Positions 893 through 27,120 of a stretch of DNA of 32,000 nucleotides are shown here, piece by piece; within the stretch, counting starts at the first letter, position 1; each line of letters opens with the position of its first letter. This DNA comes from Candidatus Saccharimonadota bacterium. GTDB taxonomy: Bacteria > Patescibacteriota > Gracilibacteria > BD1-5 > UBA2023. The DNA lies in NCBI GenBank assembly GCA_963706795.1, contig OY970170.1, positions 510,001-542,000 of the forward strand. Reading direction: 5' to 3'. The position numbers and the translations under genes were made by a program. The notes beneath the pieces are model-generated. The model worked only from the letters and a program-made list of their open reading frames with translations. It searched no databases and was not told the DNA's origin.

Positions 893-1891
893 TTAGTCGT
901 CTCCGAGGAGTTTGAGTCCACGCTCACGAAGTGCGTCGCGGACTTCTGTCATTGCCTTCTTTCCGAATCCCTTGATCGAAGAGAGCTTTGCTTCTGTACA
1001 CTTTGTAAGCTGCTCGATGGAGAGAATCTCACCATTAACGAGAGCATTGAGTGTACGAGGAGAAAGTCCGATGATTTCAATAGGAGTATAGGTTTCTTTT
1101 TCGAGATCAGCTTTGATTTCTTGTTTTTCTTTTTCGAGGATTTCCTTGATATCTCCGATGAATGAACCTTCTACCTGAAGACCTTCTTCGTTGAAGATTC
1201 CAAAGTAAGAAGTGAGCATGTCACCTGAAAATCTAAGAACTTCTTCAGGAGTCATGATTCCGTTTGTGGCAATAACCATTTCGAGTGCATCGAGATTGGT
1301 CATTTCACCTACACGCTGAGACTTTACTTCGTACTTTACTGAGAGAACTGGAGAGAAGTTTGCATCGATGAGGAGTACATTCACGTCTTCTTCGCGCTCT
1401 TTGAGAACATCAACTCCGAGGTAACCAACTGATTTTTCAACGCGGATACTCATGTCGAGCTCGAATCCATCGCGGTCAATTTCAGTGATATAGAGATCAG
1501 GATTCTGAATCTTTACATTAGAGCTTGCTTTGATGTCCTTTGCGCTAACAACTCCTGCCTTTGATTTTACGATGTGGATCCATTCCATATCAGTTCCGCT
1601 CATAGAAACCACGAGGCCCTTGAGATTGAGGAGGATGTCGAGTACTGAATTCTTGATTCCTGGGATTGTAGAGTATTCGTGACCGATTCCCTTGATCTTA
1701 ACTCCGGTAACTCGGCAGCCTGGGATCGAAGAGAGCATCACCCGACGAAGAGAGTTTCCAATAGTTACGCCGTATCCTGAAGGAAGTGGCTGAACCGTGA
1801 ACTTCGCTTCATGAATACCCGTCGTCTCCTGGAGAATCTTTGGTACGCCGATGAGATTGTGGATGATGTGCATAGAAGAATGATGAGACAA
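893..1891 (-). CDS. rpoA: DNA-directed RNA polymerase alpha subunit
   Basis: Intact 332-aa ORF with an N-terminal assembly domain (GNSLRRVMLSSIPG) and a C-terminal HhH domain (LSPRTLNAL). Conserved position between rpsD and rplQ. Confidence 0.95.
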   Translation of the reverse strand: MSHHSSMHIIHNLIGVPKILQETTGIHEAKFTVQPLPSGYGVTIGNSLRRVMLSSIPGCRVTGVKIKGIGHEYSTIPGIKNSVLDILLNLKGLVVSMSGTDMEWIHIVKSKAGVVSAKDIKASSNVKIQNPDLYITEIDRDGFELDMSIRVEKSVGYLGVDVLKEREEDVNVLLIDANFSPVLSVKYEVKSQRVGEMTNLDALEMVIATNGIMTPEEVLRFSGDMLTSYFGIFNEEGLQVEGSFIGDIKEILEKEKQEIKADLEKETYTPIEIIGLSPRTLNALVNGEILSIEQLTKCTEAKLSSIKGFGKKAMTEVRDALRERGLKLLGDD

Positions 1892-6761: not shown

Positions 6762-6862
6762 AACAATCAGGAAATTTTTCGCACTAGTATACGCTTTGAG
6801 CGCAAATGTCAAAGAGAAGGGCAACTACAAGATGAATTGCTCAAGGAGGAAGAAGATGTCTT

Positions 6863-11312: not shown

Positions 11313-12482
11313 ATGCGCTATCCAGTACTTACTCTCAAGCCCGAAAAAGAAGCCTCTCTTCGCAACGGTCACCGATGGATATTTTCAGGCGCAGTCGATC
11401 ATGTTGAAGATGTCGAAAATGGATCTATTGTCGCTGTTAAAAATGCCCGCGGCGAGCTCGTAGGCTTTGGAACGTACCATGCATCAACTTCTATTAGTGT
11501 GCGAATACTCTCATTTGGATCAAAAGATCCACTCGAAACTCTGCGTGAAAATATTACCAAATCCGTGCAACTCAGAGCACAACTCTTCGATCCAAAGATG
11601 ACGAACGCAGTGCGCCTCATTCATTCGGAGTCTGACGGTATTCCTGGTTTAGTAGTAGACAAATATGGCGATGTTCTCGTCATCCAAATCTCTACCCTCG
11701 GCACCGAGAAGCTCAAACCAATCATCCTCGAAACCCTCGAGAAACTCATAGGACCTCGGACCATTCTCGAAAAATCAGACATGCCTTCACGTAAAGAAGA
11801 AGGACTCGAACCATTTGAATGATTGATTATGGGGCAAAAGGTTGAGCGAATCACTGTACTCGAAAATGGTATGAAATTTGAGGTGGATTTCAGTGGCCAA
11901 AAGACCGGATTTTTCTTGGATCAAAGAGAAGAACGCAACCTCATTCGCAGTCTTGCAAACGGGAAAAAAGTATTAAATGCCTTCGGATATACTGGTGGTT
12001 TTAGTATCGCAGCCCATACAGGATGAGCGACACGAGTAGACACACTCGACATCTCATCAGCTGCCATCGAGCAGGCCAAAAAAAATCTCTCGATCAATGG
12101 ATTTGATGCAAATCAGCATGGATTTTTTGCTGAGGATGCATTTAGTTTTTTGCGAGAGAAGCCACTCGACTATGACATCGTCATTCTTGATCCTCCAGCC
12201 TTTGCCAAAAAGAAAGCTGATATCGAGCGAGCGACGGCTGGCTATCGCGAGATCAATGCGACCACTATGAAAAAAATGCCATCAGGATCACTTCTCCTGA
12301 CAGCATCTTGCTCGTATTTTATGGACCGTGAACTCTTTCGAAAAATGCTCTTTTTGGCGGCACGTGATGCAAAGAGAAACGTGCGTATCCTCTCGGAACA
12401 TCGCCAGGCACTTGACCATCCTGGACATCTCATGCATCCAGAGGGCGAATACCTCAAGAGCTTCTTACTGGCTATCGACTAG
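11313..12482 (+). CDS. Class I SAM-dependent rRNA methyltransferase, RlmI-like, with N-terminal PUA-like domain (389 aa)
   Basis: Three same-frame track fragments (11313, 11823, 12150) join across TGA 11820-11822 and 12024-12026. Motif I is NAFGYTGGFSIAAHTG-G-A. Motif DPPAF is present. Confidence 0.8.
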
Positions 12483-22489: not shown

Positions 22490-22555
22490 GAAGGAGATAG
22501 ATGAATAAACTCTAAATAAATATCTGAATTAAGCAAGCTCGCACCTAAAACAAAA

Positions 22556-22587
22556 AATAACCCAGGTTTTAAAACCTGGGTTATTTT
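22556..22587 (-). terminator. Intrinsic terminator after the intron-containing tRNA
   Basis: Minus strand reads AAAATAACCCAGGTTTTAAAACCTGGGTTATTTTTTG, 14 nt past the tRNA CCA end. Confidence 0.6.
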
Positions 22588-22643
22588 GAATGTCGAATTA
22601 TGGTGGGCCCACCTGGGATTGAACCAGGGACCAATCGGTTATG

Positions 22644-23327
22644 CATCCCACTTCGACTTTCGTCGCCTCTTTCGAGTTCGTGGTCTGGACTATCCCTTCA
22701 CCCACATGGGGTGTCTGCCGTCTAGTCTCTACACCTGCCTTCGCTGAAGCTTCGGCAGGCAAGCCTGCTATGAATCCTACTTTAGTAGAAGCCCCCCACA
22801 GTAGATTGCCTGCAATCCGTAGACTTGGCGAAGGATTGGCTCGGGATTACCACGTAATATTACAGAGGCTTCCCCGAATTTGACAGATATTCACCAGTAA
22901 ATTGCTCTACTGGTAGCCCTTGACGCTGAATCATATTCAATATTATGCAGTTATGATTGATAACATAACTTGCTCCATATGCTCATGCGAGCTTTCTGGA
23001 AAGCAGAAAAAATTTTGTTCTATAGCCTGTAAAAACAAGGCGCATCAGAGTTATTTTCAACAAAAGGAACGTTGACTAGAAAGAAAGATTCTTCTTATCA
23101 AGAGATTCTGAAGTTGTTGTCATACCTGTGGCTACAAGAAAAATCTCGCAGCTCTGGCATTCCATCATAGAGACGGAAAAGAAAAAGATTTTAAGCTTGA
23201 TATGCGCTCACTTTCCAATCGCACTTTAGACGCTGTGGAGTGAGAGCTCCGAAAGTGTATTTTGCTGTGCCATAATTGCCACGCAGAGACACACCATCCA
23301 GAATTGAACTTAGATTCAACGTTTTTA
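22644..23327 (-). mobile_element. Group I intron (IC3-like, tRNA-intron type), 684 nt, in the anticodon loop
   Basis: Minus-strand core motifs match the Azoarcus/Anabaena tRNA introns as I recall them. GTCAAATTCGGGGAAGCC is at 22867-22884. GGTAATCCCGAGCCAATCC is at 22833-22851. GGTGTAGAGACTAGACGG is at 22718-22735. GGGATAGTCC is at 22687-22696. The intron ends ...GGGATG (terminal G at 22644). Confidence 0.8.
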
Positions 23328-23342
23328 AGCCGACTGCTCTAA
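22953..23342 (+). CDS. HNH homing-endonuclease-like protein (129 aa), encoded antisense to the intron
   Basis: ATG 22953 and TAA 23340-23342. Three in-frame TGA at 23073, 23109 and 23241. Motifs: CSICSC...FCSIACKNKA, RF-G-SCCHTCGY, LAFHHRDGKEKDF, LLCHNCHAETHH. The last 15 nt overlap tRNA exon 1 on the other strand. Confidence 0.8.
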
Positions 23343-23378
23343 CCACTGAGCTATAGGCCCGTTAAAAACGGCAGGACG

Positions 23379-23405
23379 AGTATATAAAAAGATCGCCAAA
23401 GTCAA
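23379..23405 (-). promoter_or_regulatory. Candidate promoter of the split tRNA gene
   Basis: Minus strand reads TTGACT (23400-23405), N15, TATACT (23379-23384), about 20 nt upstream of the tRNA 5' end. Confidence 0.3.
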
Positions 23406-23496
23406 AACAAGTCAGGCCACAACTCCACTCACCGTCTAATATATTGAAAAAAGTGACAACTTCCCTATTCTGCATGCAATAATTATTTAGCAAAAT

Positions 23497-23997
23497 ATGA
23501 GCGAAGTGATCCTTCTATCGGTGAGACAGCATGGCATCAAGCTCTTTTTGCGACTTCCTCGATGGATTGTTTTTGGAACAATTGCCGGAGTTCTCGTCGG
23601 AGTTTCGACTGCTTCTTGGACACTTGGAGCTGTAACTGGAATAGCAACCCTTACTGTCGGCGTAGCTCTGGAGTGGAATCGCTTCAAGCGCTCAACGCTC
23701 GACATTACCAATACCCGCGTCTATCTACAGGTATCAAAGGGGCTCCTGAGTGGATTTGAAGCAGGACTGCATTACAAGCAGATTAAAAATTGTACCTTTC
23801 GTAAACAGCACTTACTACATACGCTCACAAATTCTGGCACGCTCTATCTCCGAGCTGGTGCGGATGAAAAGGAGCAGATCATCGCTGAATACGTACCAAA
23901 CGTCGAAAAAATCTCCAAAGCCATTAACTGGATGCTTGCACTCAGTGAAGATGCTCGCATGCATCTCGAGTCTATTCCGACACATGGAGCAAAATAA
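23497..23997 (+). CDS. Membrane protein with bacterial PH (bPH_2/YdbS-like) domain (166 aa)
   Basis: Intact ORF with two N-terminal TM helices. These are followed by the pattern STLDITNTRVYLQVSKGLLSGFEAGLHYKQIKNCTFRKQHLLHTLTNSGTLYL, typical of bPH_2. Confidence 0.6.
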   Translation: MSEVILLSVRQHGIKLFLRLPRWIVFGTIAGVLVGVSTASWTLGAVTGIATLTVGVALEWNRFKRSTLDITNTRVYLQVSKGLLSGFEAGLHYKQIKNCTFRKQHLLHTLTNSGTLYLRAGADEKEQIIAEYVPNVEKISKAINWMLALSEDARMHLESIPTHGAK

Positions 23998-24023
23998 AAT
24001 CTCCCCGAATTCGGGGAGATTTT
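23997..24023. terminator. Bidirectional intrinsic terminator
   Basis: Perfect palindrome aaatctccccg-aatt-cggggagattt between convergent genes. Confidence 0.65.
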
Positions 24024-24648
24024 AGATACTTTCTTTATAGCATGCATCAATCGCACGCGAAAGATCAAGAAGCGCCTTTAATTGGTTTCGTGTAGCAAAA
24101 ACAACAGATTCAGAATCGCGTTTCATGTAATTCACGGAAGCATCAGAAACAATGAGGAGTCTTGCTTCTTGTAAATACTGAGGATTGTATGGTGTATTAT
24201 TTAATCTCTTTTCATGAAAGTGACTATCGAGTAAACAAGGCTGATAGAGATGTGCACCTATTCCACCATCAGCAGCTCTATTGCTCAAAGTTAGCGTATT
24301 ATCAGTAGAGCCATGTTCATGTCTGATCAAAACGGATTCAGGCATTCTATCTAAAATTTTCTTAACGCTGAGATTTGTCTCCTCATATTGTTCAGTCGCT
24401 ATGGACGCCAGTAACTGAAGAACCTTCCCAGATCATTTATAGTGCGAGAGGAATCAACCCCCTCCTGCTCAACGTATTATAATTTCTGGAAAACCGCCAT
24501 TTTCTACCATGCTTATTCGTTCTTTTTCTTCCTCTCATGCACGCTTTAAAGAATCAGATCACCAGACAAAATAGTCCATTACCACATGAGTAATACTGAA
24601 TGCGGCGGGGTGTTTAGAGTCAGTAGTTTGTTCTCCTAAAAGTTTCAT
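24022..24648 (-). CDS. Hypothetical protein with Gly-rich loop (208 aa), possibly a Rossmann-like LOG/SLOG-type fold
   Basis: Track fragment 24022..24345 extends upstream through five TGA (24433, 24454, 24469, 24535, 24559) to ATG 24646-24648. It contains EIIIR-G-AGGG-G-FLSHYK-G-SG and later NRAADGGIGAHLYQP. The fold assignment rests only on remembered LOG motifs (GGGxxG, PGGxGT). Confidence 0.55.
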
Positions 24649-24765
24649 CTGATCGCGTAAATTGAGTGTACTGTATATACGAGTTATCTATTGTCAATTA
24701 TCCAAATAGCGGCTCTGTACACAAAAAAAGACCTCTTTCAAGGCCTTCTGATTCTTTGATTTTCA

Positions 24766-24885
24766 TGGCGGTGGATGAGGGATTCTTCCTTCGTTTCACT
24801 GCGGACGCCTCGGGCCAGAGTCCAAATCGTTGGACTCTTAAAACGCATTCGCGTTTTACCCTCAGTTCGAATCCCGTCACCAACC
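24766..24885 (-). ncRNA. Candidate structured RNA element, copy 1 (tRNA-Ser 3'-end-terminated core)
   Basis: The minus strand starts GGTTGGTGACGGGATTCGAAC and ends GAATCCCTCATCCACCGCCA. The two ends pair for about 16 bp with three 1-nt bulges. Internal hairpins are AAAACGC-GAAT-GCGTTTT and GAGTCCAA-CGAT-TTGGACTC. Confidence 0.4.
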
Positions 24886-24930
24886 ACAAAAAAAGACCTC
24901 TTTCAAGGCCTTCTGATTCTTTGATTTTCA

Positions 24931-25050
24931 TGGCGGTGGATGAGGGATTCTTCCTTCGTTTCACTGCGGACGCCTCGGGCCAGAGTCCAAATCGTTGGAC
25001 TCTTAAAACGCATTCGCGTTTTACCCTCAGTTCGAATCCCGTCACCAACC
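24931..25050 (-). ncRNA. Candidate structured RNA element, copy 2
   Basis: 100% identical to copy 1. Confidence 0.4.
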
Positions 25051-25097
25051 ACAAAAAAAGACCTCTTTCAAGGCCTTCTGATTCTTTGATTTTTTCA

Positions 25098-25217
25098 TGG
25101 CGGTGGATGAGGGATTCTTCCTTCGTTTCACTGCGGACGCCTCGGGCCAGAGTCCAAATCGTTGGACTCTTAAAACGCATTCGCGTTTTACCCTCAGTTC
25201 GAATCCCGTCACCAACC
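25098..25217 (-). ncRNA. Candidate structured RNA element, copy 3
   Basis: 100% identical to copy 1. Confidence 0.4.
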
Positions 25218-25264
25218 ACAAAAAAAGACCTCTTTCAAGGCCTTCTGATTCTTTGATTTTTTCA

Positions 25265-25357
25265 TGGCGGTGGATGAGGGATTCGAACCCTCGCGGCACC
25301 TTGCAGCGCCCTACAGGTTTAGCAAACCCGCCTCTTCAGCCACTTGAGTAACCCACC
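25265..25357 (-). tRNA. tRNA-Ser(GCU), CCA encoded
   Basis: Acceptor GGTGGGT/ATCCACC with discriminator G. Anticodon arm CGGGT-TTGCTAA-ACCTG. Long variable arm. T-arm GAGGG-TTCGAAT-CCCTC. Confidence 0.9.
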
Positions 25358-25378
25358 ATACAAATTAATGCACGCGAG

Positions 25379-25406
25379 AGGATATGGCAGATGAGTAGAA
25401 AGTCAA
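25379..25406 (-). promoter_or_regulatory. Candidate promoter of tRNA-Ser(GCU)
   Basis: Minus strand reads TTGACT (25401-25406), N16, TATCCT (25379-25384), about 20 nt upstream of the tRNA. Confidence 0.3.
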
Positions 25407-25471
25407 ACGGTTTCGCTCACAAATACTCATTCGCTCAAAGTAGAAATACAGAGATATTTCTCAGCCTGGCT

Positions 25472-26620
25472 CTATTCGAACTTCAATCGAATATCGAGGA
25501 GTTCTGGTACATTTCCTGTACGAACGGGTGGGCCCCATGTACCCCAACCAGAAGAAACATAAAATTCAGTATTCCCGATCTTGCGCCCTCCCCAGCTAAT
25601 TTCAAAAATCTGGCTCGTAATAACGCTAAATGGCCAAAGTTGACCGTGGTGCGTATGCCCCGAAAGCTGAAGCGATACACGTCCATCATCCGCAGCTTCA
25701 CGGATAGCTCCTGGCTGATGGTCCATCAAAATCACAGGAAGCCCTGGATCCGTATCCGCAAGAAGCTTCTCAAGGCTCTTGCGTTTTTTGCCTGTAAACA
25801 TAGGAAGACTTGCATCTTCACGACCGACGAGCGTAAATACGCCGCCAAGCACGATGGATTCATCGCGAAGCATAGTAACTCCGTGCGCAATGAGATATGC
25901 ATCGGCGCGTTCTACTCCTCAAATATGTTCATGATTTCCATTCACTGCAAAAACACCAAGTGGAGCATGGAGCTTGCGAATAGAAGTACCAATATCTTGC
26001 TTGATAACTGGCTCGATATCTTCGTCAATTGTGTCGCCTACTAAAAATATCGCATCCGGCTTCAGCGCATTAACATCGCGAACAAATCGTCCAAATCGCT
26101 TCTTGCCAATCATCGTTCCGAGATGAATATCTGTTGCCGCAACAATGTGGAATTCTCCACCCTTACCATTGCCCTTAGGAAAAACGTATTCGAGTTTGCG
26201 GATCGCGGGATGTCTCGCATTGCGCCATCCATGAGCAGAGAATGCAAAAGCTCCTACAAAAACTGCAACTACCTGGGCCAAACGAAAATACGAACTCATT
26301 CCAAAATGCGGTACAAATTCTCGTACGAGTGAGGTAATCGCCGTAATTCCAAAAATACCAAGAACAAGATACGTCAGCATCGCGAGCCAAAATGACCCCA
26401 CCCAAAGTAAAAATGAAACGAAGTGATTTTTAAAAAAACGCTCAACAATACGGGCCACCAAAAACATCGGGGCAATCGTCAAAAAGCCTATCAAATACAG
26501 ACACTGCAAAACTGGAAAAATCCCCAGAGCGCTCCATCCATAAAAAAATACAAAGGCGTTTGCACCACCGTAAACCGCTACGACAAAGAAGATAAATATA
26601 AGAATTCGATGTTTTGGCAT
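25472..26620 (-). CDS. Membrane-anchored metallophosphoesterase (YkuE-like, calcineurin-type)
   Basis: Track fragments 25472..25873 and 25919..26779 share a frame and join across TGA 25919-25921 (NGNHEHI-G-GVE). Motifs are ATDIHLG, GDTID, GNHE and GHTHHG. There are N-terminal TM helices. I prefer ATG 26618-26620, because the track's TTG 26779 abuts a terminator. Confidence 0.8.
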
Positions 26621-26776
26621 GAAATGCACATACAGATATAGGACGTTTTGAACATGGAGGGAGAAATCTAGAGCAGTCCAGAGAGCATGTCCAAAGTTTT
26701 GAAGGAGTGTAGTCGGAAGAAATAAAAACGCAAAGTAAGCACGTTTGTATTTTCGAACCTCCGCAATAGCCAATAG

Positions 26777-26804
26777 CAAAATAAAGACCTCTTTCGAGGT
26801 CTTT
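26777..26804 (-). terminator. Intrinsic terminator following element B
   Basis: Minus strand reads AAAGACCTC-GAAA-GAGGTCTTT followed by ATTTTG. Confidence 0.55.
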
Positions 26805-26823
26805 ATTTGTTTCGATTTACTTA

Positions 26824-26947
26824 ATGACGGAGAGACAGGGATTCTTCCGTCGTTTCACTTCGGACGCGCTCGGCCGAAAGCCAAATCGTTGGCTTTCTAT
26901 TGCTTCGCAATACCTCACGTTCGAATCCCGCCAAAATCTTCGTGCAC
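26824..26947 (-). ncRNA. Candidate structured RNA element B, a diverged homologue of the 24.7-25.2 kb cores, 3' of tRNA-Ser(UGA)
   Basis: The minus strand contains ...GGCGGGATTCGAACGTGAGG, then TATTGC-GAA-GCAATA, then AAAGCCAA-CGAT-TTGGCTTT, then GGCCGAGCGCGTCCGAAGTGAAACGACGGAA. It ends GAATCCCTGTCTCTCCGTCA, which copies the tRNA-Ser(UGA) 3' end with one change (GTCA for GCCA). The 5' boundary is uncertain. Confidence 0.4.
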
Positions 26948-26948
26948 G

Positions 26949-26968
26949 AAAAAACCCCTTTCGGGGCC
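26949..26968 (-). terminator. Intrinsic terminator directly after tRNA-Ser(UGA)
   Basis: Minus strand reads GGCCCC-GAAA-GGGGTT followed by TTTTC. The architecture and spacer (AAAAATATCAAAGCAGAAGG) match those after tRNA-Ser(GCU). Confidence 0.55.
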
Positions 26969-26989
26969 CTTCTGCTTTGATATTTTTAA

Positions 26990-27077
26990 TGGCGGAGAGA
27001 CAGGGATTCGAACCCTGGGTACCTCGCGGCACGACAGTTTTCAAGACTGTTGCAATCAACCACTCTGCCATCTCTCC
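26990..27077 (-). tRNA. tRNA-Ser(UGA), CCA encoded
   Basis: Acceptor GGAGAGA/TCTCTCC with discriminator G. Anticodon arm ACAGT-CTTGAAA-ACTGT. Long variable arm. T-arm CAGGG-TTCGAAT-CCCTG. Confidence 0.9.
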
Positions 27078-27092
27078 GTTCGAAGCCCGCAC

Positions 27093-27120
27093 AGAGTATT
27101 CAAGAACGTTTTCTTGTCAA
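27093..27120 (-). promoter_or_regulatory. Candidate promoter of tRNA-Ser(UGA)
   Basis: Minus strand reads TTGACA (27115-27120), N16, TACTCT (27093-27098). The -10 element is weak. Confidence 0.25.

Follow-up and report, generated by a model that had tools for sequence, protein, structure and literature searches.

Mobile group I introns with homing-endonuclease genes are textbook elements, and the intron of the cyanobacterial tRNA-fMet(CAU) gene, inserted between CU and CAU as is the one described below, carries its open reading frame (ORF) on the intron's sense strand. This is the nearest described system to ours, and it likewise combines a bacterial tRNA(CAU) gene, a group I intron in the anticodon loop and an anticodon-region endonuclease, I-Ssp6803I. 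Endonuclease genes of bacteria and phages have been described on the intron's own strand, and a 2014 review of bacterial group I introns covers endonuclease-gene invasion and collaborative homing without using the words "antisense", "opposite" or "orientation". One paper mentions in passing that group I introns occur in tRNAs of Candidate Phyla Radiation genomes. Within the literature searched, antisense endonuclease genes are otherwise described only for eukaryotic nuclear ribosomal DNA (rDNA) introns, in agreement with a first-pass annotation of our locus that had called the arrangement unusual. The examples are the myxomycete introns Dir.S956-2 and Dsq.L2066/I-DsqI, in which antisense His-Cys box genes have an internal promoter and the difficulty of antisense interference with the host's RNA precursor is acknowledged (PMC9548176). 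Here we describe a tRNA(CAU) gene whose group I intron carries an HNH-type ORF on the opposite strand. It was observed in a stretch of 32,000 nucleotides (nt), hereafter the window, of contig OY970170.1 (assembly GCA_963706795.1, positions 510,001 to 542,000) from a Candidatus Saccharimonadota bacterium placed by GTDB in the Gracilibacteria.

On its minus strand the window includes several tRNA genes as well as an rRNA operon (Rfam and ARAGORN), and one of these tRNA genes, that for tRNA(CAU), has a group I intron of 684 nt inserted between U33 and C34. From sequence comparison and structure prediction we consider it probable that this is a mobile intron in a gene of the tRNA-Ile2(CAU) type, and that the gene on its opposite strand encodes an HNH homing endonuclease with an N-terminal zinc ribbon. 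Exon 1 (tRNA positions 1-33) occupies 23360 to 23328 on the minus strand (GGGCCUAUAGCUCAGUGGUUAGAGCAGUCGGCU) and ends in GGCU, of which the last nucleotide is U33. Exon 2 extends from the CAU anticodon to an encoded CCA at 22643 to 22601 (CAUAACCGAUUGG...GGGCCCACCA). The intron (23327 to 22644, minus strand) starts after U33 and ends with the omega-G at 22644. Joined at U33|C34, the two exons were identical at 76 of 76 positions to intron-less genes in two metagenome contigs (L095 and L190). These intron-less alleles, together with a U at -1 and a G at the intron end, set the intron boundaries, and the junction is unique.

Compared with the tRNAs of E. coli, the spliced product had an annotated tRNA-Ile as its top match (84% over 76/76 nt). 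An initiator identity was disfavoured by the G1-C72 pair, and the interrupted gene is of the tRNA-Ile2(CAU) type. ARAGORN missed the gene entirely when run without its intron option; with this option it found the split tRNA with the same ends, placed the intron at 37/38 and labelled the product tRNA-Leu(taa). We rejected this label because the variable arm is short (type I tRNA) and because the exons match uninterrupted genes over 76/76 nt at the U33|C34 junction; the placement at 37/38 also violates the rule of U at -1 and a terminal G. tRNA finders thus mislabel or miss such split genes, and the genomes of these bacteria may seem to be without tRNA-Ile2. A promoter-like site (TTGACT-N15-TATACT, 23379 to 23405, minus strand) was observed 18 nt upstream of the tRNA 5' end, and an intrinsic terminator hairpin is predicted 3' of the tRNA (22554 to 22587, minus strand).

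The ORF lies on the plus strand at 22953 to 23342, antisense to the intron, and comprises 129 codons and a TAA stop when UGA is read as glycine. Its final 15 nt (23328-23342) are inside tRNA exon 1, exactly the overlap given by the first-pass annotation, which had also proposed an antisense HNH ORF, the sole long ORF of the intron, in a tRNA(CAU) group I intron. The coordinates, the Rfam match, the split tRNA, the PHROGs matches and the motifs all agree with that proposal. Both of the CxxC pairs it quoted (C56xxC59 and C106xxC109) are present, as are FHHRDGKEKDF and LLCHNCHAETHH, and the frames on the ribozyme strand (stop to stop, with TGA as sense) reached only 71, 67 and 64 amino acids (aa) at their longest, with no Pfam match in any of them. 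A search of 5.8 billion proteins returned 322 relatives of 121-129 aa and about 60-68% identity, nearly all of them unnamed. Given these 322 homologues and at least 520 genome loci with relatives, the ORF is not a product of chance. No second copy of the nuclease gene was found in the window. A profile search of 1.84 billion cluster representatives returned 318 clusters at E<=1e-30, rising to 8,626 at E<=1e-10. Some representatives of 296-361 aa (P0121-P0125) contained three to four tandem matches to the 124-position HNH profile and could be true fusions or gene-calling artefacts.

The assignment to the HNH group draws on several lines of evidence. Two PHROGs families annotated as HNH endonuclease matched the window protein, phrog_2255 at E=6.9e-21 and a second at 4.7e-16. 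Among 96 relatives, 63 matched PF01844 at E<=1, with a best value of 3e-5; the homologue P0002, for example, scored 19.8 bits, just short of the 21.4 cut-off. Across 97 aligned sequences, 29 columns were invariant, including H71, H72, N89, N108, H110, H114 and the two CxxC pairs; the window protein retains 29 of the 29. The two invariant pairs flank the core as in the structural zinc feature of the McrA/Endo VII-like subgroup. We used an AlphaFold2 model of P0002, which is 64% identical to the window protein, as the structural reference (predicted local distance difference test score 90). In this model the HNH residues are borne by strands 68-72 and 102-106 followed by a helix at 107-114, so that the invariant residues and the model together give the His...Asn...His arrangement on a beta-hairpin and helix. 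The top Foldseek matches of P0002 in the PDB were weak but all to HNH proteins, namely T4 endonuclease VII, Cap5, a Geobacter HNH nickase and the HNH domains of Cas9. A zinc ribbon of the form CxxC...CxxxC makes up the N-terminal 30 residues. At the C-terminal end, about 13 residues overlap P1 and the exon; they are poorly conserved with low model confidence and look like read-through to a chance stop codon. On the PHROGs matches, the sub-threshold Pfam matches of relatives, the motifs and the predicted fold, the ORF appears to be an intact HNH-type nuclease gene antisense in the group I intron.

The intron itself matched Rfam RF00028 at 22664-22954 on the minus strand, covering model positions 1-253, with 59.3 bits against a gathering score of 50 (relatives scored 54-94 bits). 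The 5' splice site (23328|23327) lies 373 nt upstream, on the RNA, of the start of this match. The hairpin that Rfam presents as P1 (22950-22923) was rejected, as its pairing is poor when examined by hand and the real P1 is long-range, from 23328|23327. We worked out this P1 by comparing the window intron with 18 related elements and with the ORF-less intron at the same site in L030. Its 5' strand (23303 to 23331, minus strand) consists of the exon GGCU (23331-28), P1a (23322-14, intron nt 6-14), the loop sequence CUAAG (23313-09) and P1b (23308-03). Its 3' strand (22915 to 22941, minus strand) consists of P1b (22941-36), UAUG (22935-32), P1a (22931-23) and the internal guide sequence GGCU (22918-15). 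The exon GGCU pairs with the guide, with U33 opposite G22918; P1a joins 23322-23314 to 22931-22923, P1b joins 23308-03 to 22941-36, and CUAAG faces UAUG in the internal loop between them.

Covariation supports this extended P1. In an anchored alignment of 16 elements, 82% of the P1a/P1b cells were paired, vs 25-40% with the partner strand slid. Changes on both sides were observed in 12 of 15 pairs (59 cells), and none of 500 shuffles equalled the observed values; the alignment windows were anchored on the loop motif, and for one sequence the anchor was picked from two candidates by pairing score. The z-scores of the P1 duplex ranged from -1.7 to -5.5 over 19 elements. The ORF thus occupies the terminal loop of an extended P1, with only its first and last few tens of nucleotides overlapping RNA helices. 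That pairing across the ORF is maintained implies selection for splicing. The first-pass annotation had the 3' end of the ORF running through P1 and P2; the ORF does cross the 5' strand of the extended P1, but it does not cross P2, a hairpin (ACCAGUA...UACUGGU, 22893 to 22914, minus strand) directly 3' of the guide sequence that aligns with P2 of the ORF-less L030 intron.

Two tandem hairpins with GAAA tetraloops (22667-22676 and 22655-22664, together 22655 to 22676, minus strand) are located just 5' of the 3' splice site and are kept in nearly all introns of class A. In sequence the CUAAG/UAUG loop corresponds to the classical 11-nt receptor of GAAA tetraloops, and the GAAA hairpins may contact it and so dock P1. 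A further helix, between GGUUAUG (antisense of the H-N-P codons) and CAUAAC (antisense of the start), was considered but not taken up, since the H-H-P of the window protein cannot form it and the invariant start region gives no covariation signal. Compared with the Rfam model, the window intron carries an extra stretch of about 89 nt in its P6 region (about 22735-22830, minus strand), and the ribozyme core spans 291 nt, vs 185-223 nt in the four relatives checked (L001, L003, L004 and L005).

A putative promoter was observed just upstream of the ORF. It consists of a -35 box TTGACG (22920-25), a 15-nt spacer and a -10 box TATTAT (22941-46), extending from 22920 to 22946 on the plus strand, and the ATG follows 6 nt later. 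The own promoter proposed in the first-pass annotation gains support from the relatives. Of 19 class A elements, 17 had TAnnnT at -12 to -7 relative to the ATG and one more had it a single position further upstream, the background frequency being 1.9% per position. All 19 have T at -7 and 18 have A at -11, whereas the positions next to these vary. The sense-oriented relatives showed no such -10 box. Short spacers also occur in promoter-like sites of the host, as in TTGACT-N15-TATACT of the interrupted tRNA gene, TTGACA-N15-TATACT of the IF2 ORF and N16 of both tRNA-Ser genes. In total, sites of the form TTGAC(A/T)-15/16 nt-TAnnnT on the minus strand precede three tRNA genes and two ORFs (23379-23405, 25379-25406, 27093-27120, 6786-6812 and 24670-24697), and spacers of 15-16 nt may be usual for this organism. 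Given the 6-nt gap from the -10 box to the start codon, transcription would be expected to start at the A of the ATG, and the nuclease gene is therefore predicted to have an internal sigma-70-like promoter and a leaderless mRNA.

On the other strand, the promoter is the complement of the 3' strand of P1. Its -35 box falls in P1a and the adjoining junction, its spacer comprises P1a, the receptor-like loop and P1b, and its -10 box lies just past P1b. No terminator was predicted on the plus strand 3' of the ORF, and the ORF transcript would therefore enter the tRNA promoter. Head-on transcription and complementarity of the two transcripts would follow from this geometry.

An inverted repeat was observed around the start codon (22947 to 22973, plus strand; mean z -2.3 over 19 elements), with an upstream arm, GCAGTT, complementary to codons 6-7 (Asn-Cys). 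Compensatory changes occur in L023, the hairpin is relocated in L026 and L027, and GTT at -3 to -1 is invariant in 19 of 19 elements. The ORF strand gave the more stable hairpin in 13 of 19, which is not decisive between the mRNA and the tRNA strand. The minus strand at the ORF start reads CATAAC (22950-22955, the complement of GTTATG), identical to the first 6 nt of exon 2 (22638-22643), and CATAACCC is also present at the H-N-P codons of most relatives. This identity could reflect target-site mimicry, a relic of endonuclease-gene invasion, or coincidence.

The ORF contains three in-frame TGA codons, all on the plus strand: codon 41 (23073 to 23075), codon 53 (23109 to 23111, the first G of GG.C..CGY) and codon 97 (23241 to 23243). 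Codons 41 and 53 both stand on alignment columns that are at least 90% glycine. In the 18 related elements codon 41 is GGN in 16, of which 8 are GGA, and codon 53 is GGN in all 18; a change from GGA to TGA takes a single G-to-T substitution. The column of codon 97 is variable (D, A, G, S, T, R, V, N), and it therefore has no bearing on the amino acid encoded by TGA. Both TGA codons of the host RlmI-like gene (11313-12482) also align with glycines of E. coli RlmI (PDB 3c0k). Because TGA aligns with glycine in the RlmI-like gene as well as in the HNH ORF, the host reads UGA as glycine, as had been proposed. The TGA density of the ORF (3 of 129 codons, and 3 of its 6 glycines) can be set beside 3 of 865 in IF2 and 2 of 389 in the RlmI-like gene, numbers too small for a conclusion to be drawn; the host counts cover individually recognised genes only, which have 0-3 TGA per several hundred codons.

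The nuclease allele of the window thus depends on UGA being read as glycine, and in a standard-code host it would be truncated at codon 41. The gene has also spent enough time in a UGA=Gly host for three glycine or variable codons to turn into TGA. The first-pass annotation had extended this to a selfish gene adapted, and probably confined, to hosts using code 25, which holds for this allele but not for the family. Relatives are common in phages and in groups that use code 11 (Chloroflexota, Saccharimonadota, Peregrinibacteria, Xanthomonadales and Bacteroidota). In-frame TGA codons were absent from three relatives labelled Gracilibacteria. With most of its members in standard-code phyla, the HNH family itself is not confined to code-25 hosts.

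Taken together, these observations lead us to propose the following mechanism. In the pre-tRNA, the insert of about 360 nt is closed by P1a and P1b, so that P1 can still form and the ribozyme should still be able to splice. The nuclease mRNA would be made from its own sigma-70-like promoter, and with the -10 box 6 nt 5' of the ATG it would be leaderless; its transcription would run head-on against that of the tRNA. The protein would recognise the conserved DNA of the anticodon stem-loop in intron-less tRNA(CAU) genes and cut or nick it, and repair of the break would copy the intron together with the nuclease gene into the recipient allele.

A scan of one genome per species located at least 520 loci with relatives, and we sorted the arrangement of 80 of them using ARAGORN with introns, backed by Rfam. 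In 18 of the 80, the ORF was antisense in a tRNA(CAU) intron at U33|C34, a layout shared by many uncultured bacteria and observed in Gracilibacteria, Peregrinibacteria, Saccharimonadota, Berkelbacteria, Anaerolineales/Chloroflexia and Capsulimonadaceae. Another 15 had a sense ORF in a tRNA intron, at CAU|AA in Bacteroidota and others, with more distant relatives in other tRNAs. About 19 had the ORF free-standing beside a tRNA with an ORF-less intron, including cultured Lysobacter daejeonensis GH1-9 and Thermomonas sp. LB-4, and no split tRNA was detected in the remaining 28. In L034, L035, L037, L039 and L040 (Bacteroidota, Rhodothermales and Chloroherpetonaceae), the sense ORF in the tRNA(CAU) intron at CAU|AA begins 20-35 nt past the 5' splice site and has no -10 box. 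In the Lysobacter daejeonensis strain (L018) the ORF (1501-1869, plus strand) lies about 70 nt upstream of the tRNA (1097-1433, minus strand) and is divergent from it. Similar layouts were observed in L020, L022, L025, L028, L031-L033, L036 and L045, cultured strains included, and this free-standing layout looks like "collaborative homing".

The survey of intron-bearing and intron-less alleles suggested in the first-pass annotation returned both kinds, along with introns both with and without the ORF. The exact uninterrupted 27-nt junction was present in at least 120 metagenome contigs. In L095 (1031-1600) and L190 (497-852), the intron-less tRNA-Ile2 gene is directly followed by two tRNA-Ser genes 82-93% identical to those of the window, where the same three tRNAs (22600-27078) are spread across 4.5 kb with ORFs in between. 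The intron-bearing element is patchy, occurring in Patescibacteria lineages, Chloroflexota and Capsulimonadaceae, and degenerate copies of the antisense ORF were observed in L017, L021 and L043. Presence and absence of the intron between identical exons, spread over several phyla and decaying copies are the usual signature of a homing element.

More distant relatives were found on 73 viral contigs and in 276 phage genomes. In Klebsiella phage vB_KpnM_NDO71 (OP558001, 57163-59958; L279), the tRNA array holds HNH-like ORFs on the strand opposite to the tRNA genes that they separate. One such ORF, with 32% identity to the window protein, overlaps by 10 nt with the end of a tRNA-Ile gene.

Some of these data would also suit a different history, in which the HNH gene is a selfish element in its own right. 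It would target tRNA genes, shelter in the P1 loop or use the intron to interrupt its own target site and thereby protect the host chromosome, and move with or without the intron through collaborative homing or endonuclease-gene invasion. The roughly 19 of 80 loci in which the ORF is free-standing beside an ORF-less intron (e.g. L018, L020 of Thermomonas, and L030) favour such a history, as do the opposite-strand genes among the tRNAs of phage NDO71 and the occurrence, within one family, of both orientations and of two insertion sites (U33|C34 and U36|A37). We nevertheless judge it unlikely: in the 18 GTDB loci of the antisense type, ORF and intron occur together with one architecture of P1a, receptor-like loop and P1b, and this shared architecture argues for a long-standing composite unit. 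The independent-element account differs from a mobile intron with its own nuclease gene mainly in history, and not in present mechanism.

Several observations weigh against the reading of the ORF as a working homing-endonuclease gene of a mobile intron. Neither Pfam nor NCBIfam returned an HNH match for the window protein, and the PF01844 check recommended in the first-pass annotation was among these negatives. A phmmer search of the window protein against all PDB chains found nothing at E<=10, a family-profile search of the PDB matched HNH proteins only, at marginal or non-significant levels, and none of the Foldseek matches of P0002 to the PDB was significant (E>=0.12). The window protein has H-H-P where most relatives have H-N-P. 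The putative promoter was not called by a generic scan, because that scan demands a spacer of 16-18 nt, and the start-codon hairpin would be absent from a strictly leaderless mRNA. Finally, the nearest relative found is only about 67% identical, which does not speak for recent mobility of the window copy itself.

Part of this evidence could be accommodated if the ORF were a retired homing-endonuclease gene, open by chance or through constraint on the intron RNA, and inactive or unexpressed. The degenerate copies elsewhere in the family, the high TGA density and the H-H-P are compatible with retirement, and no intron-less target was found in the window. A decayed gene, however, would hardly be expected to retain all 29 family-invariant residues, an intact -10 box and an intact ATG. 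Two of the three TGA codons stand on conserved glycine columns, for which we estimate a chance probability of about 0.005 (a rough figure, for 2 of 3 random codons falling on 5 of 129 columns), and RNA helices overlap the ORF only in its first and last few tens of nucleotides. We therefore regard retirement as very improbable. That the protein now serves the host or the intron, as a splicing cofactor (maturase) or as a regulator binding the tRNA gene or its own promoter, is less credible still: the treble-clef-type N-terminal zinc ribbon, the weak matches of relatives to PLATZ (90/96) and DUF2116 (37/96) and the conserved inverted repeat over promoter and start codon, a possible operator to which the autorepression of I-TevI offers an analogy, could fit such a role, but the family shows no variation at the catalytic HNH residues, the data give no sign of RNA binding, and the repeat covaries and relocates like an RNA hairpin, unlike a fixed protein-binding site.

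The mobile intron with an antisense HNH gene has consequences beyond this locus. An antisense gene in a tRNA intron means that the nuclease could not be translated from the pre-tRNA and would need its own promoter; its transcription would oppose that of an essential tRNA, and its mRNA would be complementary to the P1 region of the ribozyme. If the reading is correct, a single stretch of DNA encodes both the P1 substrate helix and, on its complementary strand, the promoter of the nuclease gene. The window gene would also be a clear example of a selfish gene recoded to UGA=Gly, which limits where the allele functions. More tentatively, the relatives may make up a large and apparently undescribed family of HNH homing endonucleases that is specialised on tRNA anticodon-loop DNA, crosses phyla and displays all stages of invasion side by side (free-standing, sense and antisense), with the antisense form mechanically coupling nuclease expression to tRNA-Ile2 maturation. 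Head-on transcription together with RNA-RNA complementarity would then act as a regulator built into a selfish element that resides in an essential tRNA gene. The family found here offers natural cases in which to study the entry of endonuclease genes into introns, and a set of small nucleases (about 125 aa) that probably recognise highly conserved tRNA sequence.

Among known systems, the ORF-less IC3 introns of the Azoarcus tRNA-Ile(CAU) type reside in the same kind of host tRNA as the window intron. The core motifs GUCAAAUUCGGGGAA and GUAGAGACUAGACGGCA, read by eye, are very similar to those of the Azoarcus intron, and in the Xanthomonadales relatives (L018, L020 and others) the intron follows U36 (CAU|AA), as it does in Azoarcus. 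The window intron differs in being inserted three nt earlier (U33|C34), in its extended P1 with a receptor-like loop, in its antisense ORF and in the insertion of about 89 nt in its P6 region. The cyanobacterial intron differs in its host tRNA, which is an initiator, whereas that of the window is an elongator of the Ile2 type (G1-C72). It differs also in its enzyme: I-Ssp6803I is a tetrameric PD-(D/E)xK enzyme, whereas the window enzyme would be of the HNH/zinc-ribbon type and has no sequence match in the PDB. The structure of I-Ssp6803I is solved, and no similarity to it was found by phmmer against the PDB at E<=10, where the family profile matches HNH proteins only.

We found no description of this HNH family or of a bacterial antisense layout in the literature, in a search that was incomplete and does not prove novelty. 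Homology extends to annotated phage HNH genes of PHROG 2255 and 3106 (T5-like, Vequintavirinae and cyanophage), which are 32-42% identical and some of which lie antisense in tRNA arrays. These phage genes are free-standing and not intronic, and none was found to be biochemically characterised. The myxomycete systems share with the window element the antisense layout alone. They reside in eukaryotic nucleolar rRNA genes and involve pol II promoters, polyadenylation, spliceosomal introns and the His-Cys box, whereas the window element is bacterial, interrupts a tRNA gene and is predicted to combine a sigma-70-like promoter, a leaderless mRNA and an HNH protein. Collaborative homing, as in T4 mobE with I-TevIII, resembles the family described here in placing a free-standing endonuclease gene beside an ORF-less intron in the target gene. 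The T4-type cases concern protein-coding targets in phages, whereas the present family is found at a cellular tRNA gene, with all stages and both orientations represented.

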